Below are positions 1 through 28,660 of a stretch of 32,000 bases of DNA, piece after piece. The position numbers were made by a program, and so were the translations under genes. The notes below the pieces were generated by a model. It did not search any database. It was not told the DNA's origin and worked only from the letters and a program-made list of their open reading frames with translations. This DNA is from Candidatus Jordarchaeales archaeon. GTDB taxonomy: Archaea; Asgardarchaeota; Jordiarchaeia; Jordiarchaeales; Freyrarchaeaceae. The stretch spans positions 254,356-286,355 of the forward strand of contig JAWAHN010000002.1 of the NCBI GenBank assembly GCA_038889235.1. The letters are read 5' to 3'. Positions within the stretch are counted from its first letter, which is position 1. The number at the start of each line of letters is the position of its first letter.

Positions 1-817
1 GTAGCTCTTTCGAAACAGCATAAGATGGACTTACTGCGAGGAATGCCTTAATGTATTCAAGTTTCTTAACTTCCTCTCCTAGCATTTCTTTCCTTGCAAC
101 ATTGTAGCGTGCTAGCTTGTAGAGGGCAGTAGCCATCACTTCCGGTCGACCAGTGAGTTCAACGCTCCTAGCGTCAGCATAGTACTCTCTGATCCTACTA
201 AGGTACAGCAGGATGAGCTCCGTTACGTAGTACATGACCAGCGCGCCAAGCCCTATAAGCAAGGCGGCAGGTCCTCTTTCTCTATTACTATAACCGAAGA
301 AGATCGTTGAAAGATAAATGTAGTAGCACATCAGAGGTATAACACTCAGCATGGTCATGATCAGCATATCCCTATGCTTTATGTGCCCTATTTCATGCCC
401 TATAACGGCTTCCAGCTCGTCTTCACTGAGCATCTCCAACAAGGGCCGCGTAACACAGACACGCGCACCGCGCATAGTCCTCCCATAGGCAAATGCGTTT
501 GGAACACTAATATCCGAAATCCCCACGCGTGGCATGGGAACGCCTGCTCGAGCTGCAACTCTCGCCACGATATTATATAATCGCGGGTTTTCATGTGGAC
601 TGATATATCTTACTTTCATTACAAAGTCGACTGTTCTAGGACCTAGTATGTATTGTATCGCCATGACCATTACTGCAACTGCTAAGTAGAGCAACGGGAT
701 CTCTATACCAACAAGGTACATGAGTACTGCTATCAATGCGTTAATAAGTGCAAACATTAACGTGACAACTAACAGCATACGTAGCTTGAGCCCCAACGTC
801 CTCAAAAAGACCACCAT
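1..817 (-). CDS. htpX: HtpX family (M48) membrane zinc metalloprotease, 3' end runs off the window
   Basis: Not in the ORF track because it has no stop in the window. Manual translation from ATG at 817: MVVFLRTLGLKLRMLLVVTLMFALINALIAVLMYLVG...PNAFAYGRTMRGARVCVTRPLLEMLSEDELEAVIGHEIGHIKHRD (HExxH)...LSRIREYYADARS. N-terminal TM helices and the REYxAD third-ligand motif are typical of HtpX. Confidence 0.9.
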   Translation of the reverse strand, partial: MVVFLRTLGLKLRMLLVVTLMFALINALIAVLMYLVGIEIPLLYLAVAVMVMAIQYILGPRTVDFVMKVRYISPHENPRLYNIVARVAARAGVPMPRVGISDISVPNAFAYGRTMRGARVCVTRPLLEMLSEDELEAVIGHEIGHIKHRDMLIMTMLSVIPLMCYYIYLSTIFFGYSNRERGPAALLIGLGALVMYYVTELILLYLSRIREYYADARSVELTGRPEVMATALYKLARYNVARKEMLGEEVKKLEYIKAFLAVSPSYAVSKEL

Positions 818-1236
818 GTAATTACTCCAATCAAATTCTTTTTATTCTTTTCTCTTTTATTGCATAAAAAAGGCTTTTTTTCCGTTACTTAATGTTTTAC
901 TTATTTTTTGGTTAAATGGTTTCATTTCCTGGTTGATTTTGGATAAGTGAGGCGCAAAATGCTTCAACAGCCTGGCAGCAGGCTAAAACCTAGATTGAAA
1001 GCCATTAAGTGAACAGCAGTGTTACGTTGGCATTTACTTGTTGGTTTTTTCATAGACACTTTAAGTCAACTGTGCCCCTCTAAAGACACATTTTTCGATT
1101 TACATTGTAGCAAGCCTTTACCAGTCTGGGCAGCATCTATGTGGCTTCAGAGCCATCTAAAAACCCGCCAGACACGCTTTAAAACACTTGTGTAAGCCCA
1201 CAAAACCTAGCTTCCCGCATGGTTTGCTCAAAATGT

Positions 1237-1267
1237 TTTTTAAGTTAAGATATCCATTATTAATGGA
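1237..1267 (+). promoter_or_regulatory. Putative TATA-like element followed by a perfect 15-bp palindrome (candidate operator) upstream of the amidohydrolase-vWA pair
   Basis: TTTTAAGTT at about 1237-1245; TCCATTA-T-TAATGGA at 1253-1267; ATG at 1326. Confidence 0.35.
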
Positions 1268-1325
1268 GAGGATCTAGGAAGAATTTTTGAAGTGAATGTT
1301 GGTTTAAGAAAGGGCGGTAAGAGAG

Positions 1326-2840
1326 ATGCTAGAATTCGTTGAGAAGGGCTCTGGTCTTTCACATAAGATTTATGTTGTCGATGCACATCACCATCTAGGT
1401 GCCGATAGAGATGGTCAGAGTAACCGTAACCCAGCTGCTCCAGGAGGCACATTCGACTTTTGCGTTAGACTGAGTAGCCACGTCGCAAAGATGCTTGCAG
1501 ACGGAAAAGTTGACCTTAAATTTCAACCACACGGCTTCCTAAAAGAGCTCTTGGAAAGCGAGGAAAAGTGGAGGGATACGCTTAACGGAACTTGGGTGAT
1601 AGATAAAACCGTTGTTTTTCCTTTCAACGACGAGTTTAAATGGAAGGAGGGGGATGAGGGAAAAGCAACTTACTGGAGATCGAATGACAACATTTACAGG
1701 TGGGTTTCACGAGCCCCTTACTCGTTGAAGCTGATAGGTTACCTGCGCCTAGTCCCTCATGAAGGTGAGCTAGCCATAAGAGAACTTCACAGGGCGGTCA
1801 AACAACTTGGTTTAAGGGGCGTAAAGCTACATCCACGTTCCGATGGCTGGAGTAACGAAATAGACTCCGAGCCTGTTGAAAACCTCCTCGTCGAGGCGGC
1901 CAAACTGGGGGTTCCCGTGATATTCGACACTCGTGGATTCAACCAAGTGGTAGACATAGCATCGGTAACTGTTAAAGCGAGAGCCAGGCTTGCAAGAATT
2001 GACAAACGCTTAACAAGACAACTTAAAATAATAATCGCCCATATAGGGTTCCACTTAGGTTACGATGAACTTTACACCGTGTTAAGCCATCCAAACATTT
2101 ACGGTGAGGTTTCAGGCATACAGAGCTCGGGGGTGCAAAAGCTATTCGAAGACGCCCCCTTAAAACTGGGGGAGAATCTGGAACCATATTACTCGTGGTC
2201 CGAGAAAATAATTTTTGGAACAGATTTCCCATACTTCGACGTTTATCACGCTGCGCAGTTCATCTCTTACGTGCTAAGCGATGACTTCCCCGGAACAATA
2301 CACGATGCGCAGCGAATACTGGGTGTTAACATTCTGCGCCTAATCCCTCCAAGAATGGTCAATGTCCCCCGTGAGTTGAAGTCGGTCCACGTTGACAGCT
2401 CCATTTTTCCTTTAACCCGAAAAGTGCTCGCCTCAAAAATCACAAAATTGTTCAGTGAAAAAAAGATAGACATCTCCTCTTTCGATGAATTCCTCAGTCT
2501 TCCTCCAAAAGCATCAGTTAAAGATGGCTGCCTCCTATTACTGAAAAACCATGGAAATAACGGTAAAGATGTTTTCCTTGCGCTCCTTCCACTTATAAAT
2601 TTCGGAGTAGTAACGCTCTTTGAAAGCGAGTTGCCCGACACCAAGCAGCTAACTAGTAGGGAATTGGGTTATGACGAGTTTTCATCAAGACGTCAATTTT
2701 ACGAAAAATTATGGCCTGTTACTGTCGAGAAAGACTCTGCTGAACTTGAGAGAAAGCTAGATGAGCTACTTAACACTTTTTTAGAAAGTGTAAGAGGTGA
2801 TGCATCAGTTAAGTTAAATATGGGTTCTTCTTCTGAATAG
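1326..2840 (+). CDS. Amidohydrolase superfamily (amidohydro_2-like) TIM-barrel metallohydrolase with a ~160-aa C-terminal extension
   Basis: DAHHHLG (HxH), GVKLHP, IIAHIG and IIFGTDFP motifs. The strand-5 His of the usual PVxxH motif is replaced by Asp (PVIFDT). Confidence 0.85.
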   Translation: MLEFVEKGSGLSHKIYVVDAHHHLGADRDGQSNRNPAAPGGTFDFCVRLSSHVAKMLADGKVDLKFQPHGFLKELLESEEKWRDTLNGTWVIDKTVVFPFNDEFKWKEGDEGKATYWRSNDNIYRWVSRAPYSLKLIGYLRLVPHEGELAIRELHRAVKQLGLRGVKLHPRSDGWSNEIDSEPVENLLVEAAKLGVPVIFDTRGFNQVVDIASVTVKARARLARIDKRLTRQLKIIIAHIGFHLGYDELYTVLSHPNIYGEVSGIQSSGVQKLFEDAPLKLGENLEPYYSWSEKIIFGTDFPYFDVYHAAQFISYVLSDDFPGTIHDAQRILGVNILRLIPPRMVNVPRELKSVHVDSSIFPLTRKVLASKITKLFSEKKIDISSFDEFLSLPPKASVKDGCLLLLKNHGNNGKDVFLALLPLINFGVVTLFESELPDTKQLTSRELGYDEFSSRRQFYEKLWPVTVEKDSAELERKLDELLNTFLESVRGDASVKLNMGSSSE

Positions 2841-2868
2841 TGGATTAATGAAAAAGGGAGGGGCTGTT

Positions 2869-4338
2869 ATGCCCGACGCGAACCAGGGTGATGAAAAAAA
2901 TAGGACGAATGAAGAGTCTGCCAAACCCCTAAAAGCAGTCAAAAAAGTTGTGAAGAAGAAAGAAGGAGAAGTCGAGGTCAAGGCAGAAGGGGAACGCAAA
3001 GAGGAAGAAGTCCTCAGTAAAATGTTTAAAGAGGTGGAGGAGACCAAAAAGGAGAAAATCCCGAAGAAAACTTTCAAAGTATCGGTCAAAGAAGGGTTAT
3101 CTGGTTACATATCCATCAGCGATGTGGACGCTAAGGAGCTCGGCATACATGAAGGCGCAATAATTGAGTTCGAAGACCCGCTTTCTGGATCCGGAGGCGT
3201 CGCTCTCGCGCACTTGGATAAAACTGTCTCTGCGGGGGTTGCAGTAATTGAACCAGCCCTCAGCGAGGCATGTGGTTTAGATGAGGGGTTCGAAATAGAC
3301 ATAAAGAGGTTTGAAGGTACTCCACAAAAGTTAACTAAGATCTCCTTTGGTATTGAGCCCTTGGAAGGTGAGGCTGAGGAAGCTATAAAGCGCGTGACAG
3401 AATCCAAGGAAGAATTTCAGAAGTGGCTTGACGGTCGAGTTATATTCAAGGATTGGGTTCTTAAGAATCCGAAGCTTAAAATTAACGTTTATATTGTTTC
3501 TACAGAGCCTCCCCTTACCGGGAGGCAGGTTGGAATAATAAACTTCGCTGAAATTAAAGAGTATGAGGTTAAACCGTGGAGGGCAGCTGTCCCCTTCAAC
3601 GCCATACTACTTATAGACGTTTCAAGAAGCATGCTAACTGAAGATATGAAAGTTGCTAACATTGCGCCAGCGATTGAAGCTATAAAGACTATTGGCGGTG
3701 AGGAGATACCGGAACTTAAGGAATTTCTCGGACAATTCCAGGAAGGAAAATCCGTTAAGAGAGTTGCTGGCGCAGTGTTCGCCGCCTTACTTTACCTAGT
3801 AGAAAAAGTAGGTAGAGGGTATGGAGAAAAAGTAGCTGTAATAACTTACTCGGAGGACGCCGAACCAATAACATTCCTAATGACGGGAGGAGTAAAGCTA
3901 CCATACTTCCATCCAGGAAGGAGTAAAATAGCAGGCGTATCGCAGCTCAGTAGGCTGATAATCGATAGGCTTAACAGGGTTTCCAGCCAACACACGAACA
4001 TGTCGCAAGCCTTGATGAAAGCTCTAGAGTTAATTGAGATGTGGGATAAAGAAAGCGAGGAGAAAAAGCTGCCAACAATGGTCGTGCTTCTTAGCGACGG
4101 ATTTCCCGATGTGTGGGGAGAAGAAGGACCTCCCGTCCAAGTTGTTCACGACCACTTCTCTAAGAGGAACGATGTCGTAATATACACAGTTGGTATAGGC
4201 GGGGAAGTTCAGGAGAGGATAATGGAAGCTATAGCTTCGAAAGGCCGCGGGGTCTACTACAAGGCAGAAGACTTAGGAGAACTATTAAACTGGTACCAGA
4301 AACTTGCACGAGACCTAGTCATTAGGCTTGAAGCTTAG
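2869..4338 (+). CDS. CDC48/VAT N-domain-like (double-psi barrel + beta-clam) fused to a vWA domain with intact MIDAS; K/E-rich N-terminus; no AAA domain
   Basis: Start is probably ATG 2869 (GGAGG upstream); the ORF track starts at 2848. ISISDVDAKELGIHEG...GLDEGFEIDIKRFEG and WLDGRVI...IVSTEPP resemble CDC48_N/CDC48_2. MIDAS elements: LLIDVSRSM (DxSxS), QHTNMSQAL (T), VLLSDG (D). YTVGIG is a typical vWA strand. Confidence 0.8.
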   Translation: MPDANQGDEKNRTNEESAKPLKAVKKVVKKKEGEVEVKAEGERKEEEVLSKMFKEVEETKKEKIPKKTFKVSVKEGLSGYISISDVDAKELGIHEGAIIEFEDPLSGSGGVALAHLDKTVSAGVAVIEPALSEACGLDEGFEIDIKRFEGTPQKLTKISFGIEPLEGEAEEAIKRVTESKEEFQKWLDGRVIFKDWVLKNPKLKINVYIVSTEPPLTGRQVGIINFAEIKEYEVKPWRAAVPFNAILLIDVSRSMLTEDMKVANIAPAIEAIKTIGGEEIPELKEFLGQFQEGKSVKRVAGAVFAALLYLVEKVGRGYGEKVAVITYSEDAEPITFLMTGGVKLPYFHPGRSKIAGVSQLSRLIIDRLNRVSSQHTNMSQALMKALELIEMWDKESEEKKLPTMVVLLSDGFPDVWGEEGPPVQVVHDHFSKRNDVVIYTVGIGGEVQERIMEAIASKGRGVYYKAEDLGELLNWYQKLARDLVIRLEA

Positions 4339-4391
4339 CCCCCACTCCCTTCAACTAGTAACACCGACCGCACCGAGTAAAAGGGCTGTCT

Positions 4392-7300
4392 CTACTTCGG
4401 TGTGAATGTAACTGTTATCAGGGCGTTTTGAACGAGTTTGCGTGGGATCTCCCTGAGTTCCCCCCTCACTTTTTCGAAGAAAATCATTCCCAAGTAGTAT
4501 GATTCGGTGTTTTCCGGTCTTGGAACTTTCCACACCAATGGTTCTCCTGTTATTTTTTCTATTTTCCCTTTGGTAAGCGTTAACTCAGCTGTTTTCCGCA
4601 TAATAACCTTCTTGGTTTTCTTTTCGAATATGGCGAAAACAGCTCTTACTTGCAGCGGGTAATCCGTGAAGCTCTGAACAGCCGGTGAAATTTTGTACTC
4701 TAGCTCTTTTTCTATCTGTACGAACTCTGAGAGGGGTGGTGTGCTCAAGTATGCCACCCTCAATACAGGTCTTACAGCTTCAACTTTCACGTACCTTTCA
4801 CTAACCCATCCTAATTCCTCTCCTTTTCTAACTTCAAACCTAAGTTTACACTCTTTTCCCGTCGCAAAGAGGGGAGCCTTCACAGGTATCTTAACGAGAA
4901 CTCTTTCTTTCGCTCCCATCTTCACCGGTATAGTTTCCTGCAAAACAACGGCACCGTCAACGGATTCCATATATACTAGGTCAAATGTCAACGGACTGTT
5001 CACATTGTTTTCAAGCTGGATTATTATATCTTGAAGAGTTCCCGGCGCCATAATTCCCGGTATTTCATGCAAAAAGACATTTACCGCCTCTTTCAGACCT
5101 ATCACATTGACTTCCGCACAGTCCTCAATTATGCTTCGCCCCTCTTTTATCAAAATAGCCTTCACAGTAAACTTTCCAACATGATTAGGAGCGGTTATGG
5201 GGGGTATGTCTATCACGGAGTCCAATATGGGTTCCTTCAAGGGTATCACTGCTTCTTTTACCTCCCCCGCCTGAGACACCGTCTTTACTACGAGGTCACA
5301 CGGCACTAGTGTTCTGCTAAGCCCTCTTATCTCAACTTTCCCTGTGAACGGCGACCCTAACGCGACAGTTCCAGGCATCGATGTAAGCTTCAGAAATGTT
5401 TCTTGCCCCCTAACCACTCTGAATTTTATAGGCGTCTCAATAAGGTTTATGAGTTCTCCATTGTGGAAGACTTCCGCAGTGAAGTACATTGTGTCCTCGT
5501 TCTTGCCACTTTCCAGAACATCATCTGTAATAACCCACTTAATTGGTATGTTCGTTGATACCCCCGGTTTAACCGACAAATCGAGGATTTTCTTCTCTGC
5601 CCCAGTGGTCATGGATTTAACCTTTACTATAATGTTGACCGGGGTTGGCGAAAGCAACTCACTCGCGTCAACCATTACCTTGCTCTCCAGAGTCTCTCCC
5701 ACATTGTAAGTTTGCTTAGGAATGCGTCCAAACTCTACTGAAACCATTGCTCCCTGGAAGAAAACCCTGAAGTCCCTAGACCACGCTTCCGATACAACTC
5801 TTCCACTCGAATCTATTAATTGCGCTCTTATAGAACATCTTGGGCTAATCCACGAGCTGTAGAGCCACGGCTTCAAAGTGAGCGGCTCTATTTCAACCCA
5901 GCTCCCCTCAGCCTGCCCCTCCAATACTGCTTTCGCCCAATCGAGCTTCGCCGTCTCTTCCGACATCGCAACAAAGAGAACTTGGTCTCGTGCCCTTATA
6001 GGTTTAAGGTACACCCCCCACGGTTTGATGTCACTCGTCACGTAGTCAAGCTCACGGCCACTGTCCTTATCCACTACCGACACTTTGAGAGTTAGATACA
6101 CGTCCTGCGGCGTGGTGTTTTCAACAGCAACTATGAATGGTATTTCGGTCTCACCAGTCACTATTACTCCGTCGACCTGCGCTATCAAGTCTGCTTTACA
6201 GTTAACCCTGTAAACAGGTATCGCCAGCTTCTCAACAGCAACCGTCTCAGACGAGACAGCCAGTTCGGCGCTAAGCGTGTACTGTGAGATCCCCACTTCC
6301 GTCTCAAACTCCATTTCGCCGTACCTTCTTTCTCCGGGTTCTAGAGCGTCTAGGACAAACTCCTCCACAAGCACTTCTTCACCCTTCTGGTTCACTACAA
6401 CGCACCTCAAAGTGAGGTCTCTTAACACCTCATTTCCCTTGTTTTCAACGAACACTTTGCAAGTCACAGTCTGGCCCTCAAACACCATGGGTGTCTCAAG
6501 GACCGTTTCAAGCGAGACTGGCACCGTAACAAACTCTTGTAGGTTCGGGGTCCCCATCAGCGGGTCGCTCCATATGTTGTTGCTCGTTTGATCAGCAATT
6601 ATCTGCAGCTCCCTTGCCAAGCTCTCGATGTCCTCCCCCAGTTCAAAGAACTTTTCAAGCTGGTAGTCTGCGGTAGTCATCGGAGCAATCACATTTCCTG
6701 TCAAGTCGCCGTAAACACTGATCAAAAGTGGGTTCAGATACTCCGACTTCAAAAGCCCCAGCTCATCAAGCTCCTCCCTCAAGAAGAGGAACATGTTCTT
6801 TACAGCGTCCACTAATCGTTTCACAGGCTCTCTACCGCCAGACTTAAGGTCGAAGAAGTACGAGCGCGCAAAGTCAGGGTACCTTTTAACGAATGCGTCT
6901 AGATCCCTTGGCTTGTAGAAAGCCCCCGTAAGCCCCCACCTTATCGCCGATCTCCTGTTTTTCACTAGCGTTTCCGAATCTACATCTGGTATCTCTTCCC
7001 CAGCATCGAGGAGCCTCTTAGCCTTGAGGGCTATTGCTTGAAGGAGAGCGGCTATGGCAACCTTTCTTATTACACTTATTTGGCAGTCAAAAAATCTGAT
7101 TTCAACAGTGCCGTACTTTGTGAATGGGTACATGTCGCACATCCTGGCAGGTGTACGTCCAATAGTTTTTTCGAAAAACTCTTCGTCGAGAGATTTAAGG
7201 TATGGAATGTAGTGTTGCGGGTCATCTGGCCCAAGCTGTCGAACATTAAGCTGAAGCCTTATGCTTCTAACACAGCCTGGGGCTTGAAGTTTTCCGTCTT

Positions 7301-7934
7301 TCAGCGTGACGATATCTGTTGGCCGCCCATTCACAAAGGGAGAATTAACCGAGAGCGCTATCAGGTGGGGTATGAATGCGCGAATAAGGTTATAAACGGC
7401 AAGCCGCAACTTCGGGTCGGGGACGCCTATGTGGTGGTGGTCTCCGAAGCTTAGCCCTTGCTGATATTCCATCAACGGGTTTAGACCAGTCATTATGAGT
7501 TTAACTCCCGCAGGTAGGGAGTCGTGTGAAAGTTTAATCAGCGTGTGAAGCCACCAGGCAAGTTCTTCTAAGCTTTCACAGGGAGGTGTGGCTACTTCCA
7601 AAATCCACGTTATGGTTCCTATGTGGGGGTCGCGTCCCAGCACTTCTACATCCACTTTCTTTCCGTCGGGGAGAGTGTACGTTAAAATCAGGGTTTCTCC
7701 TCTTCTTTCAACAGGTGAGACCCTAATGTTAGACGTCTTCTTACCTATTCTCCTAACTAACTCATCCTGTGGCTCCTTGAGAATCGCTTTGAGTTTGTCT
7801 GCAACATCGTGAACGATTTTCCCCATTATACTAACCATTTTCTCTCCGTCAATCCAGCGTCCCTTCAAGTTCACTATTTGAATCTCTGACTCTATGCCAT
7901 GTGTGAACGGCAATTTCAAACTTGGTAAACTCAC
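4392..7934 (-). CDS. Glutamate-cysteine ligase family 2 (GCS2/YbdK-like carboxylate-amine ligase) fused to about six Ig-like beta-sandwich domains
   Basis: N-terminal ~460 aa: HGIESEIQIV (ExE), LEVATPPC, GDHHHIG, LIALSVNSPF, GTVEIRFFD. From residue ~471 (nt 6524) there are repeated ~105-130-aa beta-rich units, e.g. CKVFVENKGNEVLRDL...LEPGERR (CARDB-like). GTG start with GGTGA RBS. No signal peptide or TM segment seen. Confidence 0.8.
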   Translation of the reverse strand: MSLPSLKLPFTHGIESEIQIVNLKGRWIDGEKMVSIMGKIVHDVADKLKAILKEPQDELVRRIGKKTSNIRVSPVERRGETLILTYTLPDGKKVDVEVLGRDPHIGTITWILEVATPPCESLEELAWWLHTLIKLSHDSLPAGVKLIMTGLNPLMEYQQGLSFGDHHHIGVPDPKLRLAVYNLIRAFIPHLIALSVNSPFVNGRPTDIVTLKDGKLQAPGCVRSIRLQLNVRQLGPDDPQHYIPYLKSLDEEFFEKTIGRTPARMCDMYPFTKYGTVEIRFFDCQISVIRKVAIAALLQAIALKAKRLLDAGEEIPDVDSETLVKNRRSAIRWGLTGAFYKPRDLDAFVKRYPDFARSYFFDLKSGGREPVKRLVDAVKNMFLFLREELDELGLLKSEYLNPLLISVYGDLTGNVIAPMTTADYQLEKFFELGEDIESLARELQIIADQTSNNIWSDPLMGTPNLQEFVTVPVSLETVLETPMVFEGQTVTCKVFVENKGNEVLRDLTLRCVVVNQKGEEVLVEEFVLDALEPGERRYGEMEFETEVGISQYTLSAELAVSSETVAVEKLAIPVYRVNCKADLIAQVDGVIVTGETEIPFIVAVENTTPQDVYLTLKVSVVDKDSGRELDYVTSDIKPWGVYLKPIRARDQVLFVAMSEETAKLDWAKAVLEGQAEGSWVEIEPLTLKPWLYSSWISPRCSIRAQLIDSSGRVVSEAWSRDFRVFFQGAMVSVEFGRIPKQTYNVGETLESKVMVDASELLSPTPVNIIVKVKSMTTGAEKKILDLSVKPGVSTNIPIKWVITDDVLESGKNEDTMYFTAEVFHNGELINLIETPIKFRVVRGQETFLKLTSMPGTVALGSPFTGKVEIRGLSRTLVPCDLVVKTVSQAGEVKEAVIPLKEPILDSVIDIPPITAPNHVGKFTVKAILIKEGRSIIEDCAEVNVIGLKEAVNVFLHEIPGIMAPGTLQDIIIQLENNVNSPLTFDLVYMESVDGAVVLQETIPVKMGAKERVLVKIPVKAPLFATGKECKLRFEVRKGEELGWVSERYVKVEAVRPVLRVAYLSTPPLSEFVQIEKELEYKISPAVQSFTDYPLQVRAVFAIFEKKTKKVIMRKTAELTLTKGKIEKITGEPLVWKVPRPENTESYYLGMIFFEKVRGELREIPRKLVQNALITVTFTPK

Positions 7935-7940
7935 TTACGG

Positions 7941-8657
7941 TCACCTGCCCTCCAGATCTTTCACCAAAGCAACCAGGTTTTCAATCACTCTACTTATCAT
8001 CTTCTCAGGAATGCTTAAATCCAGAAATGAAAACGACTCCTTACTTTTCACGAAAACATGAATGCAGCACGCTATGGGGCCACCCCCAAATGTTTCACTG
8101 TCATACGCCACCTTAACACCGAAGTCCACCAACCTGCTGATAATGTTGTGCCTATCAATCGTTGTAAAGTCGTTCACAAAGACTACATCTTCCATCACTG
8201 GCATTTTGAATGAACGCATAAGCGCAATTACAGTGTTTGCGTCTCTCTCTCCAGATAAAACTAGAGAAATTATCTTTGCTACTTTTTCACAGGGCTCTAA
8301 ATCCTCACCTGACCCTGGTATCAAAAAGTAGTAAAAAGATTTTCCATCTTTTTTCACGTTTTCAAAGACCCTTTTTATACAGTCCGAAGAAAGCTTGTCT
8401 TCTTGTGTTGATATAAGCATTAATCGAATAGTTTCTTCTCCTTCTTCCGGAATCGAGAGCACTCCTTCTTTTACTAATCTCCCAATCTTATTTGTCAACA
8501 CTTTTTCGATTGATAAGTGGAGAAGCGAGTAGAGCTGCGAGTACTCCGCTGCCAGTTCAACAGACAGAGAAACAAGTTGTTCTACCTCATTCAGGGATGA
8601 GAGAAGCAAGTCTACAGTTCGGCCAACTTTCTCATAAACACTGGCGGCTCTCTCCAT
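7941..8657 (-). CDS. Hypothetical protein; possible degenerate N-formylglutamate amidohydrolase / Zn-exopeptidase-like fold
   Basis: Long ORF tightly packed in the operon (6 bp from the GCS2 start). Probable start ATG 8657; the track starts at 8687. Weak resemblance only: FVNDFTT ~ xDxHS, GVKVAYDSETFGGGPI ~ GxxVxxNxPYxGGxI, CCIHVFV ~ AIQIEI. Confidence 0.6.
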   Translation of the reverse strand: MERAASVYEKVGRTVDLLLSSLNEVEQLVSLSVELAAEYSQLYSLLHLSIEKVLTNKIGRLVKEGVLSIPEEGEETIRLMLISTQEDKLSSDCIKRVFENVKKDGKSFYYFLIPGSGEDLEPCEKVAKIISLVLSGERDANTVIALMRSFKMPVMEDVVFVNDFTTIDRHNIISRLVDFGVKVAYDSETFGGGPIACCIHVFVKSKESFSFLDLSIPEKMISRVIENLVALVKDLEGR

Positions 8658-8667
8658 GAACTTCCGC

Positions 8668-9825
8668 CTACCTTGAAAGTTCTTCAATAGTCCTTAAAAG
8701 GTCGGCTTTATGTCTCCTCAACTCTTGCAGTCTTTCTGAGAATTCAACCATGAGCTCCCTTATTCTCGATATGGCTTCATCTATCAATTTCAGTTTTTCG
8801 TCAAGCATGTAGGTCAAGTTTTGCACGTTACTGGTTGCAAGAGAAGACATTTTGCCCTCAATAGCGCTCACCCTTCTCTCAATACTGTCCAGCCTATCAT
8901 TAACTTCACGTACCACCTTCTTAACTTCCAAGATATCCTGCTGTGAAATCCTTCCTACTTCAACCTCACCCTTCTCAACAACCACCTCACCCCCTCCAAC
9001 TCTAGTAACCTCCCTGCCTGCTTGAGTTACCACTTCTTTTTCTTTCAGCCCAACTATTCCGCTCGCATAGCAGTCGTAAATCTCAGCCAAAGTTTCCGCC
9101 ATCTCTCTGCTATAGGATTCGCTCGCCAAACCCGAAATTATGCACGAAATTTCGTCAGAATACTTTAAACACCACGCTCCTCTCCCGCTTTTCTGATCTA
9201 GGAAGGAAAAAACAGAAAAAGCGAAGAACGGGCTTTCGAAAAGATTTTGCACGGTTTTAACTATCAAGTTCAAATCCTTAGGTAGCTGAGTGCCAGCCTC
9301 AATGTAATCACGCACCCACCCGTATTCGACTTCCCCCCTCTCTAGAAGACTCCTAACCCAGTTGCTCACTCCTCCTTCCGCCAGTATTTTAGTTCCACTA
9401 AGCTCATAAGGTCTCTCGCTAAAACCAAGCAACGAGAAAACGTTCGCCATCACCATTTTCATCTCTTTCTCACGTGTCTTGAAAACGCAAAGCCACTTTT
9501 CTCTTCCATACCCGACAGCACACACCTTGCTACCGTAATACTCTACAATGACGATAGCGGTTAAATCTCCCCGAACGAGCGGGGAAAGAAAAACGTCGCT
9601 AGAAAACGCCCTCAATAATCTTTGCGTGGCCTCCCTCACCTCTGGGCTTAAAATATCACCTTTAAAAAAAGTGAAAAAACGCACCGCGTCGCCATTGCTT
9701 TTAAGCACCTCAACTGCTTCCTCTATATCTGAGAGATTAATGAAAAGGTACCCGCTCACCCCGACTGAACTGGAAGGAGCATACCATTTTTCGAGCCACT
9801 GCCTAAGCACTTCTCCTCTCCTCAA
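8668..9825 (-). CDS. Hypothetical protein, alpha/beta N-terminal region and C-terminal coiled coil
   Basis: 385-aa ORF. The C-terminal ~90 aa show a heptad pattern (VREVNDRLDSIERRVSAIEGKM...IRELMVEFSERLQELRRHKADLLRTIEEL). Stop codon lies 10 bp upstream of the probable start of the next gene. Confidence 0.7.
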   Translation of the reverse strand: MRRGEVLRQWLEKWYAPSSSVGVSGYLFINLSDIEEAVEVLKSNGDAVRFFTFFKGDILSPEVREATQRLLRAFSSDVFLSPLVRGDLTAIVIVEYYGSKVCAVGYGREKWLCVFKTREKEMKMVMANVFSLLGFSERPYELSGTKILAEGGVSNWVRSLLERGEVEYGWVRDYIEAGTQLPKDLNLIVKTVQNLFESPFFAFSVFSFLDQKSGRGAWCLKYSDEISCIISGLASESYSREMAETLAEIYDCYASGIVGLKEKEVVTQAGREVTRVGGGEVVVEKGEVEVGRISQQDILEVKKVVREVNDRLDSIERRVSAIEGKMSSLATSNVQNLTYMLDEKLKLIDEAISRIRELMVEFSERLQELRRHKADLLRTIEELSR

Positions 9826-9962
9826 TTAAGAACCCCCAAAACAAAACACATGCATGCAGCCAGTACACATCCAAATACTATTACATATTTTGCCACTTCC
9901 AGTGCTTAAATATTCTTTCTTAAACAAAAAAAGTGAGATCTATAGTTGTGCTGTTCCCTTTT

Positions 9963-10169
9963 CTATCCACCTGAAGGTGCTTTTTTGGCTTTTTCCTCTA
10001 CGTGTTTTTCCAAAACGCTGGCCGCTTCCTGTATCATTTTAGCGCGTTCCTCTTTAGTCTTCTCCAACGCTTCCCGCTCCTCTTTCCTTCTCTCTTCGTG
10101 AAGTTTCTTCAGCATTTCTTTAGTCTTCTTCACTTCCTCAGGGGAGGGTGGAACCTCTTCTTCGCTCAC
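9963..10169 (-). CDS. Small highly charged helical protein
   Basis: Probable GTG start at 10169 after GAGGGGAG; the track starts at 10190. K/E/R-rich sequence on the same strand as the downstream operon. Confidence 0.5.
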   Translation of the reverse strand: MSEEEVPPSPEEVKKTKEMLKKLHEERRKEEREALEKTKEERAKMIQEAASVLEKHVEEKAKKAPSGG

Positions 10170-10395
10170 AAAGCTCCCCTCACATCTCATCTGCTGTAAA
10201 ATATAATTTCTTCAAAGGAATTTATTTATTTTTTGGGATAAGTTGCTGCAAAAAAGCAAAAACTTAAGTATATTTGCCAAAAACTGAGAAGTCCTCAAAT
10301 CACATCGCGCAATTTTTTGTAAACAGGTATCCCGTGAGACAAGCAAGCCATAAACCCCTGCTATTACCTTAGAAGTCTTTCGTCGATACGTAATG

Positions 10396-10403
10396 TTTAA
10401 AAA
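10396..10403 (+). promoter_or_regulatory. Putative TATA box of the tRNA-Cys gene
   Basis: TTTAAAAA about 30 bp upstream of the mature tRNA 5' end (10432). Confidence 0.5.
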
Positions 10404-10447
10404 CTCCTTTTTCGTCTAATTGGGCTAGAGAGCCGGGGTGGCCGAGA

Positions 10448-10478
10448 ACACTTTCTCCCATTTTAGAGAGTGTCGGAA
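10448..10478 (+). other. tRNA intron 1 (31 nt, D-loop, position 16/17)
   Basis: BHB: central helix CCGA(10442-45)/UCGG(10473-76), bulges GA|A and AA|A, intron stem CACUUUCU/AGAGAGUG (8 bp), outer G10-C pair. Confidence 0.9.
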
Positions 10479-10486
10479 ACGGTGAG

Positions 10487-10507
10487 TCCCTTTTCTGGGG
10501 GCATTAA
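10487..10507 (+). other. tRNA intron 2 (21 nt, D-stem, position 23/24), relaxed BHB
   Basis: Central helix GGUG(10481-84)/CAUU(10502-05) with two G-U pairs, bulges AG|U and AA|G, intron stem CCCUU/GGGGG; the exon-side outer pair is absent (C-C). Removal restores the D-stem 3' strand AGGC. Confidence 0.8.
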
Positions 10508-10521
10508 GCAGCGGACTGCAG

Positions 10522-10534
10522 TGTTCACGCAGTC
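10522..10534 (+). other. tRNA intron 3 (13 nt, canonical position 37/38)
   Basis: Central helix CUGC(32-35)/GCAG(10529-32), bulges AG|U and UC|A, anticodon stem as outer helix, G-C closing a UUCA loop. Confidence 0.95.
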
Positions 10535-10556
10535 ATCCGCCACACCGGGGTTCAAA

Positions 10557-10574
10557 ACCTTCAAAAGGTGAAAA
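10557..10574 (+). other. tRNA intron 4 (18 nt, T-loop, position 59/60)
   Basis: Central helix UUCA(10551-54)/UGAA(10569-72), bulges AA|A and AA|U, intron stem CCUU/AAGG, T-stem as outer helix. Confidence 0.9.
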
Positions 10575-10623
10575 TCCCTGCCCCGGCTCCAACTCATTTT
10601 CCGGCTATGTGAGATGGTGTTTT

Positions 10624-11247
10624 ATGCCTGTCTCTCTAACTCCAAGTGTTGTCAAGAAAATTTCTTTGGCAGTTGACGCACTCTTAACTATCTGGTCTAT
10701 TATTCGTTCCTCCTCTCCGAGCTATACACTGAAAGATGAGGAAGAAAAAGAGTTCGTTGAAAAGTTGTCATTGGCCTACCAACTACTTTCAGATCTGGCT
10801 TCCACTATGGGTGTTAAACAGCAACGTGAGAGCGGACTCGACGAAGTATTTTCAAAGTTGAAGCCGGACGAAACACTCATCCTCGTCGTTTCGCCGTCTT
10901 TCATGAGGCAACTCGTGAAGGCTGGTGTTCCGAGAGAAAAGGTAGTTGCTGTGGGGGGGCCGCTAACTAGCGAAGACGTCAAATTACTAAACCCTAACAT
11001 CTCTGAAGAATCCGTGGCAAAAATTGAAGAGCGTCTAAAGTCTTTTTGGAGGGAGCTTGAAAGAAAAGCTAAGGGTATACGTACAGTGCTCCTGGTTCTA
11101 GAGAAGGGTGGTAAGGTTGACGAGATGATAGCCAGTCGCTCAAACTTGTTATCTGAAAAATTAGGAGTTGAAGTCAAGCCAATTTACCTGAGTGGTTTTG
11201 AAGATCAGTTCATAAGTGCTCTACCACAATTCTTTAGAAAGGAGTGA
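10624..11247 (+). CDS. SepCysE-like (DUF2100 family) transsulfursome scaffold protein
   Basis: Probable start ATG 10624. Recalled family pattern: N-terminal helical hairpin (SPSYTLKDEEEKEF) and C-terminal LILVVS...GVPREKVVAVGGPLTSEDVKLLNPNISEE. Size ~207 aa; directly upstream of pscS. Confidence 0.75.
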   Translation: MPVSLTPSVVKKISLAVDALLTIWSIIRSSSPSYTLKDEEEKEFVEKLSLAYQLLSDLASTMGVKQQRESGLDEVFSKLKPDETLILVVSPSFMRQLVKAGVPREKVVAVGGPLTSEDVKLLNPNISEESVAKIEERLKSFWRELERKAKGIRTVLLVLEKGGKVDEMIASRSNLLSEKLGVEVKPIYLSGFEDQFISALPQFFRKE

Positions 11248-11252
11248 GCTGT

Positions 11253-12455
11253 ATGCCCCTTAGTCCCGACCGGCTTTTAAAGTACTACAACCTCACGAGA
11301 AACACCGAAATAGAAGCCATAAACCTCCACCCGATTCAAAGCGGAGGAAGAGCGGGGAACTATCCTGGGGTTGTTAAAGCAGTATTGAACTTCATAGACG
11401 GGTATAGCACGTGCGACTACTGTATTAAAGGTAGACTTAATGAAATCGAAACCCCTCCCCTACGCGACTTCCACAGCGACCTAGCAGAGTTCGTAGAAAT
11501 GGACGAAGTACGCCTCCTACCCGGGTGCAGACAGGCTCAATTTGCCACTTTCCACAGTCTAGCGAAACCCGGCGACTACATAGTTATTGACTCCTTAGCA
11601 CACTATTCAACATACCTCTCCGCCGAGAGAGCTGGCCTAAAAATAGTCGAGGTCCCCAACACAGGCTTCCCTTATTTCGAAGTACCACCCGAACTCTACG
11701 CTGAAAAAATAGAAGAAGTCAAAAGGGAGACTGGAAAACCACCAGCCTTAGTCTTCCTCACTCACGTTGACTACTCTTATGGTAATCTCGCTGACGCCAA
11801 AAAGGTTGCAAGGATATCTCACGAGTATGATGTACCTTTCGTCCTAAACTGCGCATACACGGTAGGCAGAATGCCTGTCTCCGGACGGGAGCTGGAAGCC
11901 GACGTTATAACTGCCTCGCTGCATAAATCTTTTGCATCACCAGCTCCGTCTGGGCTCATCGCAGCTAAGGAAGAATATGCAAAACAAATATTCAGGAGAT
12001 CTACGGTGAAAGGGGAGTGGAGTGGAAGGACGTTTCCCAACAAAGAAGTGGAGCTCCTAGGATGCACTCTTCCAGGATGCGTCGCTATAGGTGTAATGGC
12101 TGCATTTCCATATGTGGTTGAAAGAGTAAAACATTGGGATGAAGAAGTGAAGAAAGCTCGTTACTTCTCAAGCCAGTTAACGAGGATAGAAGGTGTCATC
12201 CAGCTCGGGCAGACCCCACACAACCACGACCTCCTTCACTTCGAAAGCTCCTCATTCTTCGAGATCGCTAAAAACCATCCTAGAAAAGGCTTCTTCCTCT
12301 ATGACGAGTTGAAATCCCGAGGAATTGTAGGTGTTCAACCAGGGCTTTCGAAATCTTGGAAGTTATCAACTTATGGCCAAAGCTGGGAGAACGTTAAAAG
12401 GGCAGCCCAAGCATTTCTTGAAATAGCTGAAAAATACGGCATCCCTGTCTCGTGA
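11253..12455 (+). CDS. pscS: O-phospho-L-seryl-tRNA:Cys-tRNA synthase (SepCysS)
   Basis: INLHPIQSGG, DGYSTCDYC (conserved CxxC), DSLAHYSTY, HVDYSYGNL, ASLHKSFASPAPSG (PLP Lys), KEVELLGCT (third conserved Cys). Confidence 0.93.
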   Translation: MPLSPDRLLKYYNLTRNTEIEAINLHPIQSGGRAGNYPGVVKAVLNFIDGYSTCDYCIKGRLNEIETPPLRDFHSDLAEFVEMDEVRLLPGCRQAQFATFHSLAKPGDYIVIDSLAHYSTYLSAERAGLKIVEVPNTGFPYFEVPPELYAEKIEEVKRETGKPPALVFLTHVDYSYGNLADAKKVARISHEYDVPFVLNCAYTVGRMPVSGRELEADVITASLHKSFASPAPSGLIAAKEEYAKQIFRRSTVKGEWSGRTFPNKEVELLGCTLPGCVAIGVMAAFPYVVERVKHWDEEVKKARYFSSQLTRIEGVIQLGQTPHNHDLLHFESSSFFEIAKNHPRKGFFLYDELKSRGIVGVQPGLSKSWKLSTYGQSWENVKRAAQAFLEIAEKYGIPVS

Positions 12456-12591
12456 ATTTCAGCCCAAGTTGGTCATGGTGTTTCAGAAAAATTTAAATCA
12501 CATGTCTCAATATTTCACTTTTGACAGATCTTCCCAAAAACCTAAAGGTGAGGGAAGAAGTTAAAAGAAAAAAGGGAGTTGATTTAGCTCA

Positions 12592-12849
12592 ATGTTCTGT
12601 CCTAAAGATGGAGCCCTGATGACTCCTAAAAAGAAAGACGGTAAGACAGTTCTAGTTTGTAAAAAGTGTGGTTATGAGGCGCCGGTTTCTGATGATAAAA
12701 AGTACAAGCTGGTTGTAAAAATACCACATACGACGAAAGATAAAATTGCGGTCGTTGAAAAAGAGATTAACCTTTCCTTCAAACAAGACGAGGAAGAGAG
12801 GGAAGAGCTCAAGAAGCAAGTGCTCGAGTTCCTCGCCGAAGAAAGTTGA
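12592..12849 (+). CDS. TFS/RpoM (RPA12/RPB9/RPC11-like) paralogue with only the N-terminal zinc ribbon
   Basis: MFCPKDGALM...VCKKCGY N-terminal ribbon and KDKIAVVE linker; ends in an acidic helix with no second ribbon and no RSADE loop. Confidence 0.75.
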   Translation: MFCPKDGALMTPKKKDGKTVLVCKKCGYEAPVSDDKKYKLVVKIPHTTKDKIAVVEKEINLSFKQDEEEREELKKQVLEFLAEES

Positions 12850-12966
12850 AAACCATCTTAACATCTTTTTGTTAGACTCTAAACTTTATTTTTAGATCAC
12901 ATCTTTCGTAACTATAGCGTTTTCCCCTAGTTTGCTCTCCTTACCTTAAATAGGAGGGTTGCGTTA

Positions 12967-13626
12967 GTGTCAGACTCGCTGAGGGAACATTTGCTCAGGG
13001 AAGTGGAACGCTGTATAGTGATGCTCAACGGCGGAGAGCTTGAAACGCTCATTAATAAATGTCTGGAGCGTGGTTTATCTGCTCTTGAAATACTAGATGC
13101 TATGGCGAGGGGTATGGAGGAAGTGGGGAGGAAATATGAAGCACAGGAATATTTTTTAAGTGAGCTTATTTTTAGTGGAGAAATTTTCAAGAAAGGAATG
13201 AAGTTGCTTGAACCGTATTTGAAAGGCGAATCGGTTGGAGAAACGAGAGGCGTCGTGGTCGTCGGTACGGTGATGAACGACCTGCACGATATAGGAAAAA
13301 ACATTTTCATTACACTCCTGCTCGCCGCTGGGTTTAAAGTAGTCGACTTAGGAGTAGACGTTCCCCCGGAAAAGTTTGTTGAAGCAGTTAAGGAAAACGA
13401 CGCCAGCATAGTCGGCATATCCGCCCTTCTGACAAGCACCGCACCCGGAATACGCGAAGTCGTCAAACTGCTCGAAAAGGAGGGGTTAAGGGAAAAAGTC
13501 AAGGTAATAGTGGGTGGCGCCGCCCTAACGCACGAAATGGCCAAGGAACTAGGAGCGGACGCTTACGCCGAGACAGCAGTTAAAGGAGTCGAAATATGTA
13601 AAAAATGGGCAGCAGGTAGTGTTTAG
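12967..13626 (+). CDS. Corrinoid (cobalamin-binding) protein, MtaC/MtbC/MttC-like
   Basis: N-terminal cap helices (GMEEVGRKYEAQEYFLSEL), B12 motif NDLHDIGKN (DxHxxG), SALLT, VIVGGA. Confidence 0.92.
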   Translation: MSDSLREHLLREVERCIVMLNGGELETLINKCLERGLSALEILDAMARGMEEVGRKYEAQEYFLSELIFSGEIFKKGMKLLEPYLKGESVGETRGVVVVGTVMNDLHDIGKNIFITLLLAAGFKVVDLGVDVPPEKFVEAVKENDASIVGISALLTSTAPGIREVVKLLEKEGLREKVKVIVGGAALTHEMAKELGADAYAETAVKGVEICKKWAAGSV

Positions 13627-13630
13627 TCCA

Positions 13631-14566
13631 TTACCCTTCTCTCTTTTCCGGGTTCGTTAACTTAAACACTCCTCCTACCTGCCTTAGTATCTCAAATGCT
13701 TCGGTAGGTATAATGTACTTTTTCGAGTCCTTATCGCTTATCTTAGTGAGAGTTTCAAGGTACTGGAGTGCCATTGTTTTTTCATCTATCCTCCTAGCTG
13801 TCTCCATAATTCTTTCCAAAGATTGGGCATACCCTTCAGCTCTGAGAATGGTGGCCTGCTTTCTACCCTCCGCCCTTAGACTCAAAGCTTTCCTTTTAGC
13901 CTCTGCTCTTGTGATCATCGCCTGCTTTTCACCCTCAGCGATAAGGATAGCAGACTCCCTTTTCCCATCAGCTTCGGTGACCATAGCTCTTCTGACCCGC
14001 TCAGCCTCCATTTGCCGTATCATTGCATCCAGCACGGATGCAGGAGGCAGTATCTCCCTGATCTCAACCCCAGTGATTTTGACTCCCCATCTGACAGTAA
14101 TTTCGTCAAGTTTTTCCTGGAGAATCGTGTTTATGCGCTCCCTTTCAGCAAGAACTTGGTCAAGATATATGTCGCCTATGACGGCCCTCAAAGTGGTCTG
14201 AGCAACCCCTATGGCGGCAAACCTCCAGTTTTCAACTTTAATAACCGAGTCTATCGGAGAAACAACTTTGTAGTATATTAAGACGTCTACATCGACTGGA
14301 GCATTATCCTTTGTTATACACCTTTGGTATGGCACGTCAAAGTAATCCTCTCGCAAATCCACTTTTATCATTTTGTCAATGAAGGGAATCAAGAATATTA
14401 TTCCCGGCCCCTTCTCTTTCGGAAGCACTCTCCCCAGCCTGAATACTACACCTCTCTCATACTCTCGTAAAACCCTCAACCCGCTCAAGAGAATCATTAA
14501 TACTATGAATGCGAAAACCAAGAAGGCAACAATAATAGATGTCGCATCTGCCTGAAGTGGAAACAT
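13631..14566 (-). CDS. SPFH/band-7 (stomatin/QmcA-like) membrane protein
   Basis: N-terminal TM helix; EYERGVVFRLGR, GPGIIFLIPFID, ITKDNAPVDVD, AQTTLRAVIG, WGVKITGVEIREI; AEAERxRRA-type coiled coil. Confidence 0.93.
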   Translation of the reverse strand: MFPLQADATSIIVAFLVFAFIVLMILLSGLRVLREYERGVVFRLGRVLPKEKGPGIIFLIPFIDKMIKVDLREDYFDVPYQRCITKDNAPVDVDVLIYYKVVSPIDSVIKVENWRFAAIGVAQTTLRAVIGDIYLDQVLAERERINTILQEKLDEITVRWGVKITGVEIREILPPASVLDAMIRQMEAERVRRAMVTEADGKRESAILIAEGEKQAMITRAEAKRKALSLRAEGRKQATILRAEGYAQSLERIMETARRIDEKTMALQYLETLTKISDKDSKKYIIPTEAFEILRQVGGVFKLTNPEKREG

Positions 14567-14983
14567 TCAGTACCCCCTCCGGATAGAAGGGGGTCTTAAG
14601 CAGATAAAAATTTTATGGAAAGGCTTGCTTCCTCCACTACAAAGCATTTCTCACATCACACTTTTAAACGCGCCATTATCACTTTTACGTTAGTCAAGCC
14701 CCTAAAACTAGTGTTTCAAATTAGGGACCACTTTACTTCAGTTTAATTTATAAGGTTCTGAACCACTTCTTCGTTTTTAGTACCACAGGCTGTTGAAGCC
14801 AAAAAAGTGACAACATGAACCAAATGACTTTTCAATAGCCCTCGTCTATTGCTAAGAAATAATGGCGCCGTTTTCGTCTTCATTTTCTTAACTTTTCAAC
14901 CTTTCTAGGAGTTTTCACCAAACCAGCTTTACATCCTTAAGATATTAAAAAAGTTATTAAACACCTGGAAAATTTTATATGTC

Positions 14984-15046
14984 TTGATGAACTCCCGCCT
15001 ACCTCCGGGTCTATGATGTCTCATCGACCTCGATTACACTAACCGA
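14984..15046 (+). ncRNA. Weak candidate box C/D-like small RNA
   Basis: C-like TTGATGA (14984-90) about 25 nt downstream of AAGTTATTAA, C'-like ATGATGT (15013-19). D'/D boxes are degenerate (CCGG, TCGA or CCGA). Confidence 0.2.
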
Positions 15047-15057
15047 GGGAGGTAAGT

Positions 15058-17604: not shown

Positions 17605-17676
17605 TTTAAGAAAAAATTTATTGAAGCATCCCTACACATACTTATTGTGTGACTTCGACTTTGGAGGACACTTGAA

Positions 17677-26824: not shown

Positions 26825-27694
26825 GTGACGCTGAAGGACTTACTTGTTCTCGCGATAGTCTACCTTTACGTGTTTGCAGTGATAGGTGTCAGTGAAGGGT
26901 TGAGGAGGTGGAAGGGGTTAAGCTCGGAGTTCACGAGGAAAATGATACACTTCTTCGCTGGCGACGCCATAGTGTTCTGTCCCTTCTTCGATACCCCACA
27001 ATTGATTCCGCTGGTCCCGCTAACACTAGGTCTCCTTATCTTCTTCACAACTCCAAGAAGCCCCTTTAAAAGTCTTAGGACAATGTTTGAAGTTATGGCT
27101 AGGGAAGAAGACTATGCTTCGGGGCACATTTACGGCCCGTTCTACTACATTGTCTCCGTTGGAATAGTAGTAGCAGTTTTCGTCTTGCCCTTCGCCGCAG
27201 CATACTGGCCGCTCTTCACTTTAGGTGCTTTTGCTCTCTTCTCAATGTTCTACGGTGACGGACTGGCGGCAATAGTCGGCTCCAAGTGGGGGAGGCACAA
27301 GTATACGGTCAGGGGGAATACAAGAAGCGTCGAAGGCTCACTTACAGTATTCTTGATGTCAGTGGTTTCGGCAATTATAACCTTCACGTATTATTCGTAC
27401 TTTGGTTTCTGGCCTAGTCTAGGAATGCTACACAACAAGCTTTTGTTAGTCGCACTACTAGGTACGCCACTCGCCATCATGCCAGTCTTCATGTTTCAGT
27501 TAATGCCCCTGCACGCTGGCTTGATAGTGTTAGCGCTTGTAGGGTCCATCCTGGCTACACTCATAGAAGCACTCTCCCCCCGTGGACTAGACAATCTCAC
27601 GCTCCCCTTACTGCTAACCTCCACTCTCATCTTACTAGCGTACATCTTGACGCCGTGGTACTTCGCCACCATCCAAATGCTACCAACCATCTAG
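26825..27694 (+). CDS. CTP-dependent polyprenol/diacylglycerol kinase family (SEC59/DGK1/VTE5-like) membrane protein
   Basis: RKMIHFFAG, YGPFYY, YGDGLAAIVGSKWGRHKY, RSVEGS, DNLTLP; many TM segments. Confidence 0.88.
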   Translation: MTLKDLLVLAIVYLYVFAVIGVSEGLRRWKGLSSEFTRKMIHFFAGDAIVFCPFFDTPQLIPLVPLTLGLLIFFTTPRSPFKSLRTMFEVMAREEDYASGHIYGPFYYIVSVGIVVAVFVLPFAAAYWPLFTLGAFALFSMFYGDGLAAIVGSKWGRHKYTVRGNTRSVEGSLTVFLMSVVSAIITFTYYSYFGFWPSLGMLHNKLLLVALLGTPLAIMPVFMFQLMPLHAGLIVLALVGSILATLIEALSPRGLDNLTLPLLLTSTLILLAYILTPWYFATIQMLPTI

Positions 27695-28659: not shown

Positions 28660-28660
28660 C

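Follow-up and report, generated by a model that had tools for sequence, protein, structure and literature searches.

A ligase, hydrolase and Cdc48N-vWA gene module conserved across lineages of Asgard archaea, with a possible role in protein modification

This work concerns a gene locus in a window of 32,000 nt (G000:C2:254356-286355), the whole stretch of DNA that was analysed, within the 2.1-Mb genome of a Candidatus Jordarchaeales archaeon. In this locus the genes for an Amidohydro_2-family enzyme (the hydrolase) and for a protein combining a Cdc48-type N-domain with a von Willebrand factor A domain (the Cdc48N-vWA or vWA protein) converge on the genes for a GCS2/YbdK-like ligase and for a protein that we call P248. 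Comparison with other Asgard archaea indicates that the genes very probably form a functional unit, to which a fused paralogue of the hydrolase and vWA proteins also appears to belong. We would class the module as a variant of the modification theme that joins a ligase to a hydrolase, and there is a substantial chance that it is something more distinct; our preferred reading, in which ligase, hydrolase and docking protein act on proteins, carries a probability of roughly 0.4. A full-text literature search found no paper describing the gene set.

A preliminary description of this DNA had proposed two convergent units meeting at a 53-bp gap and had suggested that the two belong together, for which it named conserved linkage as the one convincing proof. 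The open reading frames (ORFs) and the gap lie at the claimed positions (Table 1), and a conserved linkage of the + and - units is now strongly supported by co-occurrence, by several gene arrangements, by joint duplication and by congruent trees. Presence and absence were scored in 201 Asgard genomes, one per species and spread evenly across the phylum; given the kinship of these genomes, no statistic was attached to the counts. A ligase match was present in 101 genomes and a vWA match in 102, with both in 98 and neither in 96, leaving seven genomes with just one of the two, three of them on weak matches. Both genes occur in all or nearly all genomes of families f1, f2, f6, f7, f9, f26 and f27, and in f21 the ligase and the vWA gene were matched in 8/10 and 7/10 genomes, respectively. 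Families f3-f5, f8 and f10-f20 gave no vWA match and a single weak ligase match (in f17). Strong hydrolase matches (E < 1e-27) track this family pattern, and the Thorarchaeia (f7) genomes without a ligase match are also without a vWA match.

Gene order was compared by fetching 20 regions, calling and clustering their ORFs, and running profile searches over 80 named loci, these being the best 80 of 250 ligase loci in the genome scan. All of these best 80 carry Asgard labels except three metagenome-assembled genomes (MAGs) labelled Bathyarchaeia or Thermoproteota, which have an Asgard-type gene order; the named relatives of the locus itself are Jordarchaeia and Freyarchaeota MAGs. Ligase, hydrolase and vWA genes occur together in at least five arrangements, in genomes labelled Jord-, Frey-, Thor-, Hermod- and Lokiarchaeia. 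In the Jordarchaeia and Freyarchaeota (Jord/Frey) and in f6, hydrolase-vWA faces ligase-P248 as it does in the window, where the hydrolase and vWA genes, both on the + strand, are spaced by 7 bp. Family f21 has all three genes on one strand in the order hydrolase-ligase-vWA, and their stop and start codons overlap; in f27 the hydrolase and ligase genes are adjacent, with the vWA gene 6 kb away. Lokiarchaeia, Hermodarchaeia and f23 share the order c13 (a protein of 550-660 aa)-ligase-hydrolase, with gaps of 2-50 nt (in 1/11 of these loci the ligase-hydrolase gap is ~1.8 kb) and the vWA gene 5-40 kb off, often on the same contig. In Thorarchaeia, ~8 kb of conserved genes lie between c15-P248-ligase on one side and vWA-hydrolase on the other, and the fusion gene is divergent from the vWA and hydrolase genes.

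The genome holds a second complete set at C2:344676-351333, in which hydrolase2 and vWA2 face a 1233-aa ligase2, and this second set is also found in other Jord/Frey genomes (L090, L107, L112, L121). When maximum-likelihood trees were built for the ligase domain, the hydrolase and the vWA protein, all three had one deep split in common, with 100% support; it separates the second Jordarchaeia set, grouped with f27 and f21, from the first Jord/Frey set together with Thorarchaeia, f26, f6 and Lokiarchaeia/f23. The three genes were therefore either duplicated or transferred, and have since been passed down as a unit.

The ligase exceeds the cut-off of Pfam GCS2 (39.1 bits, cut-off 21) and lies below that of the NCBIfam YbdK subfamily (E 5e-26, 91.6 bits, cut-off 176.4), with all NCBIfam equivalogs far below; on these scores it is a divergent GCS2/YbdK branch and not an equivalog. 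Its best solved chain is E. coli YbdK 1r8g, to which the active-site residues align, and the GhExE signature (G13, E15, E17) together with H166, H168, R226, E278 and R280 is invariant in 10/10 ligase orthologues from all lineages. With the YbdK/GCS2 ligases (PF04107; E. coli YbdK 1r8g; 1tt4) it shares the catalytic fold and the motifs (GhExE, two His, and an Arg and a Glu at the ATP/Mg site), and it differs from them in being encoded beside an Amidohydro_2 enzyme, a Cdc48N-vWA protein and a protein with the P248 domain, and in bearing a C-terminal tail of some 700 residues. The Lokiarchaeia ligases, of 550-580 aa, are without this tail and have a 100-residue N-terminal extension instead. In the window the tail is 710 residues long and beta-rich; sub-threshold CARDB, LacZ_4 and FixG_C matches and a CARDB lead from the ESM Atlas suggest that it is probably Ig/CARDB-like. 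The earlier label "GCS2-Ig ligase" accordingly holds above the Pfam cut-off for its GCS2 part, while its Ig part stays at those sub-threshold matches and that lead.

The hydrolase matches Pfam Amidohydro_2 (PF04909) with 68.1 bits (cut-off 26.4, E 1.5e-18) and is a bona fide member of the family. Its metal site is judged intact because the residues D19, H21, H23, H169, D201, H239 and D300 are invariant in 20/20 orthologues. It shares the TIM barrel and the HxH, His, His, Asp metal ligands of Amidohydro_2 enzymes such as LigW and gamma-resorcylate decarboxylase, and it differs from them in its obligatory genomic partnership with the vWA protein and the ligase, in having a dead fused paralogue, and in a C-terminal extension of 160 residues that is family-specific and conserved.

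The vWA protein scores 37.8 bits against Pfam VWA (cut-off 23.8), and the residues of its metal-ion-dependent adhesion site (MIDAS), D257, S259, S261, T383 and D417, are invariant in 18/18 orthologues. Behind a K/E-rich tail (residues 1-70), residues 72-248 (nt 3061-3591) make up what is predicted to be a complete Cdc48/p97-type N-domain. Pfam alone is blind to this domain, CDC48_N remaining below threshold at 13.2 bits against a cut-off of 35.1. The preliminary description had nonetheless called the gene CDC48N-vWA, and this was confirmed in two ways: a sequence profile matched VAT-N and Cdc48 double-psi barrels (E 1e-4 to 5e-3), and an AlphaFold2 (AF2) model of the domain, with a mean predicted confidence (pLDDT) of 92.7, matched whole p97 and NSF N-domains in Foldseek (E 4e-10, TM-score 0.66-0.72). 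The modelled domain is two-lobed like the N-domains of Cdc48, p97, VAT and NSF, with a double-psi barrel and a beta-clam. It differs from Cdc48/p97 in what follows: the domain sits on a MIDAS-bearing vWA domain and not on AAA+ ATPase rings, and no ATPase family match was found in the vWA protein.

The termini of the vWA proteins vary among lineages. Those of Lokiarchaeia are longer, at 720-764 aa, with additional N-terminal sequence, and those of f27 carry a strongly acidic, Glu/Asp-rich C-terminal tail of 40-60 residues (L050 14637-16133, + strand; L051 3920-5398, - strand) that is missing in the other lineages; the Jord/Frey proteins have the 70-residue Lys/Glu-rich start instead. A third Cdc48N-vWA paralogue, 46% identical to that of the window, lies outside it at G000:C2:442903-444078 (+ strand); it is present in every Jord/Frey genome searched and has no adjacent ligase match.

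P248, which may alternatively start from a TTG at 8687 (7941-8687, 248 aa), gave no Pfam or NCBIfam match, and an ESM Atlas look-up returned no usable match. Profile comparison by hhalign related it to a 222-aa protein directly upstream of the ligase in Thorarchaeia, f6 and f26 (probability 97.7, E 2e-12), and to the C-terminal domain of the ~600-aa c13 protein upstream of the ligase in Lokiarchaeia and Hermodarchaeia (probability 81.6, E 1e-5, over the whole domain including a D-x4-GGG motif); a P248 hidden Markov model found the c13 domain with E 2e-6. By these relationships P248 is a fourth conserved member of the module. A profile search of f21, f27 and second-set loci did not detect the domain, and the family is small, with 52 representatives among 1.8 billion representative proteins searched.

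The preliminary description had considered the 238-aa protein a possible amidohydrolase fold, and this did not hold: the AF2 model (pLDDT 90.3) has no TIM barrel, and in it an N-terminal helix of 60 residues is followed by an alpha/beta domain resembling peptidases and phosphorylases. Its fold neighbours are pyroglutamyl peptidase I, PghP (poly-gamma-glutamate hydrolase), N-formylglutamate amidohydrolase, PbaB/PAC2, M20/M42 peptidases and nucleoside phosphorylases, with Foldseek E-values of 3e-4 to 1e-3 and TM-scores of 0.4-0.5, and VIA Z-scores of 9-10.8 over 135-168 residues, scores that we take to suggest a common fold and with which family membership is not claimed. The modelled alpha/beta domain superposes on pyroglutamyl peptidase I, PghP, N-formylglutamate amidohydrolase and PbaB-PAC2; P248 differs from the pyroglutamyl peptidase-like class in its extra 60-residue helix and in its missing catalytic residues. 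Only D186, G191, G192 and G193 (the D-x4-GGG motif) are conserved at >= 90% among 46 members, and in these members there is neither a conserved Cys-His-Glu triad nor a set of zinc ligands, no Cys or His being conserved at all. We infer that P248 may be a subunit of the ligase that lacks catalytic activity or is, at the least, unconventional. The Lokiarchaeia c13 protein, whose neighbouring ligase is tail-less, appears from its sequence to hold an Ig-like domain and helical repeats, and the ligases of Thorarchaeia and Jordarchaeia are tailed; such an exchange of accessory domains between the adjacent ligase and upstream genes would fit a ligase-P248 complex.

The fusion gene had been put forward as a further component, and its linkage bears this out. 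The encoded protein has end-to-end homology to the products of the hydrolase and vWA genes (BLASTP). Its gene adjoins or lies near the module in five lineages (f1, f2, f6, Thorarchaeia and f26), and in 7/7 orthologues examined the hydrolase metal ligands are replaced and a complete MIDAS is missing. It is, on this evidence from sequence, a linked non-catalytic paralogue. One gene fuses both halves, which argues that the separate hydrolase and vWA proteins act in contact and bind each other.

Some genes around these loci encode membrane and protease proteins. A Band_7/SPFH gene (window 13631-14566, - strand) adjoins the fusion gene, as it does in genome G006. In f26, Rce1-like and HEAT genes adjoin vWA-hydrolase, and the 8-kb spacer of the Thorarchaeia (seen, for example, in L037, with 12382-13973, and in L038-L040) encodes Band_7, NfeD, an Rce1-like CPBP protease, a HEAT-repeat protein, DUF92 and a PfkB kinase. 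A membrane-protease theme (Band_7/NfeD, Rce1-like, and htpX in f1) thus recurs around the module.

Table 1. Features of the locus and their positions in the window
Feature	Position	Strand	Basis
htpX (M48 protease)	2-817	-	ORF
Hydrolase, 504 aa: Amidohydro_2 TIM barrel (~residues 1-340), C-terminal extension (~345-504)	1326-2840	+	Pfam PF04909
Cdc48N-vWA protein, 496 aa: K/E-rich tail, Cdc48/p97-type N-domain, vWA	2848-4338	+	Pfam VWA, AF2
Convergent intergenic gap, 53 bp, between + and - units	4339-4391	none	
Ligase, 1180 aa: GCS2/YbdK-like domain, residues 1-470 (nt 6525-7934), and 710-residue tail	4392-7934	-	Pfam GCS2
P248, 238 aa from ATG at 8657	7941-8657	-	Immediately upstream of ligase, 6 bp apart
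385-aa protein: N-terminal domain, C-terminal coiled coil	8668-9825	-	ORF
75-aa charged protein, own TATA-like element and T-run	9963-10190	-	ORF
Fusion, 848 aa: hydrolase-like and Cdc48N-vWA-like halves	15058-17604	+	BLASTP to both + strand genes

In the mechanism that we prefer, the GCS2/YbdK-type ligase would use ATP to convert a carboxylate to an acyl phosphate, and from this would form an amide or isopeptide bond with an amine on a protein or peptide. Activation of a carboxylate and formation of an amide are proposed because of what is known of the glutamine synthetase/GCS fold and because PafA, the Pup ligase, derived from a GCS2-type fold or a GCS2-like ancestor (PMC2588565). The substrate would be held by non-catalytic parts, namely the P248 subunit and the Ig-like tail, or in Lokiarchaeia by those domains on the upstream protein. 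The Amidohydro_2 enzyme would then either remove the bond or ready the substrate for ligation; in pupylation Dop does both for PafA. The Cdc48N-vWA protein would dock either the hydrolase or the substrate once marked, with a carboxylate bound at its MIDAS and a partner motif or a ubiquitin-like fold in the groove of its N-domain, and the dead fusion would serve as a binding-only paralogue. We infer from this scheme the roles of writer, eraser and reader for the ligase, the hydrolase and the vWA protein.

The logic that the module may share with pupylation (PafA, Dop and Pup in Actinobacteria) is that of a glutamine-synthetase-fold carboxylate-amine ligase joined to a hydrolytic enzyme and a reader, and the likeness is one of analogy. 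The ligase is outside the PafA/Dop family, its matches being confined to GCS2/YbdK. The hydrolase, a metal enzyme with a TIM barrel, is not a paralogue of the ligase. Beside the ligase there is no Pup-like small tag with a conserved C-terminal GGQ or GGE, and the window contains no proteasome or Mpa gene link, the would-be reader being a Cdc48N-vWA protein without an ATPase. With none of the three defining features that we tested present, the module at most works like pupylation and, as judged from its genes, is not a member of that system. A bolder form of the proposal is that the module represents an independently evolved protein-conjugation system, besides ubiquitin-like and Pup tagging and so far found in Asgard archaea, in which a GCS2-fold ligase with P248 would write an amide or isopeptide mark without E1, E2 or E3, the Cdc48N-vWA protein would read it, and a TIM-barrel metal hydrolase would erase it or prime for it; this we consider unlikely.

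Several observations weigh against the protein-directed reading. Characterised GCS2 enzymes couple small molecules, and the solved chains nearest to the hydrolase are LigW-type decarboxylases (E 9e-4), not peptide amidases. The Amidohydro_2 enzymes with solved structures are decarboxylases; the family also includes ACMSD, LigI and lactonases, and no protein amidase is known in it. Among the loci compared there is no conserved small tag and no other small ORF common to the lineages, and the ends of c15, the small protein of the Thorarchaeia loci, are variable. The window has neither a proteasome gene nor an AAA+ gene among its ORFs, and the recurrent neighbours scanned have none either. The vWA gene of Lokiarchaeia is only loosely linked to ligase-hydrolase, and f26, which has the ligase group on one contig and the vWA-hydrolase-fusion group on another, is the sole clear exception to linkage.

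One alternative is a small-molecule pathway, in which the ligase would form the gamma-glutamyl derivative, or another amide, of a small amine or amino acid, the hydrolase would later remove or transform the product, and the vWA protein and P248 would be a scaffold or regulator; EgtA/EgtC and PuuA/PuuD are known routes of transient amidation. We regard this as possible, if doubtful. The nearest characterised relatives of the ligase (YbdK/GCS2) act on free glutamate, small aromatic acids are the substrates of the Amidohydro_2 relatives nearest among solved structures, no tag protein was found, and the tightest pair in Lokiarchaeia and f27 is ligase-hydrolase, all of which such a pathway would explain. 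It accounts less readily for four conserved parts that are non-catalytic binding modules (the Cdc48 N-domain, the MIDAS-vWA domain, P248 and the dead fusion), for the 700-residue tail of the ligase, and for a vWA gene that follows the phyletic pattern and the tree of the ligase; moreover, the loci compared have neither a transporter gene nor any other metabolic gene that all lineages keep. Protein-binding modules (Cdc48 N-domain, vWA, P248, fusion) dominate the gene set, a composition that favours a protein or peptide over a metabolite as the substrate.

A second alternative is that there are two independent pairs, P248-ligase and hydrolase-vWA, which are near one another by shared descent alone and have no common substrate. 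The 8 kb of other conserved genes between the pairs in Thorarchaeia and the separate contigs in f26 are consistent with this. A prediction of the complex between the ligase domain (1-470) and the hydrolase showed no interface, and its score of 0.00 gives no verdict, neither for nor against binding. On the other hand, the adjacent pair in Lokiarchaeia, f21 and f27 is ligase-hydrolase, which crosses the proposed pairs, and the near-identical presence and absence of the genes, the retention of all three in the duplicated set and the congruence of the three trees also speak against it; we consider two independent pairs improbable. That the genes are chance convergent neighbours with unrelated functions can be dismissed as a very remote prospect, since conserved linkage across classes and the duplicated set refute it, even if genes that converge have no promoter in common and a gap of 53 bp is by itself uninformative.

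On the protein-directed reading the module would be a new route of protein marking; were its substrate a metabolite, the pathway would be an unusual, scaffolded one. Its components are now delimited as the ligase with its P248-domain partner, the hydrolase and the Cdc48N-vWA protein, and the dead fusion. Among known archaea the Asgard group is the closest to eukaryotes, and the module ties an amide-bond ligase and a hydrolase to two building blocks of protein quality control in eukaryotes, an adaptor-binding head of the Cdc48 type and a vWA domain with a MIDAS.

Three further genes that the preliminary description had counted as parts of the locus fall outside this core. htpX lies near the locus solely in family f1, where G006 and G070 have a 518-aa gene between it and the hydrolase gene. 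The small charged protein of 75 aa is likewise confined to f1: tblastn found homologues in G070 (87% identical) and G006 (78% identical) and nothing elsewhere, and its C-termini read PSGG, PPSG or PPS. It is probably not a core part; as a candidate Pup- or ubiquitin-like tag it was ruled out, the GG end not being conserved and the gene being restricted to one family. The 385-aa coiled-coil protein is confined to Jord/Frey genomes, where it keeps the same position (G006, G070, G028 and others), and has no Pfam or Atlas match; from this distribution it is a lineage-specific accessory gene. Comparison by hhalign gave no kinship between it and the 794-805-aa proteins of f6 and f26, the 318-aa protein of f21, the 508-aa protein of the second set or other families.

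Other lineages have accessory genes of their own. In nearly all Thorarchaeia loci c15, a helical protein of 146 aa, is encoded directly upstream of the P248 gene and may be a lineage-specific fifth member; it has a conserved Gly-rich motif and no Pfam match (L037 4076-4513, + strand; 47 loci among L053-L132). The accessory protein of f6 and f26 is the one of 794-805 aa, family f21 has a small GTPase and a 303-318-aa protein, and the neighbours of the Lokiarchaeia vWA gene are Roadblock and c11.

No signal peptide or convincing membrane segment was found in the locus proteins checked, and because of this the module proteins are probably cytoplasmic. Two RNA libraries were searched for the locus. 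Run X8 gave zero cover, and run X4, a sediment metatranscriptome, contained contigs of a relative that are 90-97% identical over the hydrolase, vWA, ligase and P248/385-aa genes. In X4, 26/30 bins were covered, and the contigs take in most of the locus (window 1-18000); carry-over of DNA is possible, and this cover is not counted as evidence of expression. A single 1.2-kb contig in the same run reaches from the start of the ligase gene through the 238-aa gene into the end of the 385-aa gene.

ARAGORN found no tRNA in the window, and positions 10432-12455 hold a DUF2100 gene and a gene for a SepSecS/SepCysS-like class-V aminotransferase. A 360-aa protein encoded at 27691-28773 (- strand) has sub-threshold matches of the leucine-zipper type (HALZ, bZIP_1, ZapB) and is probably a coiled coil.

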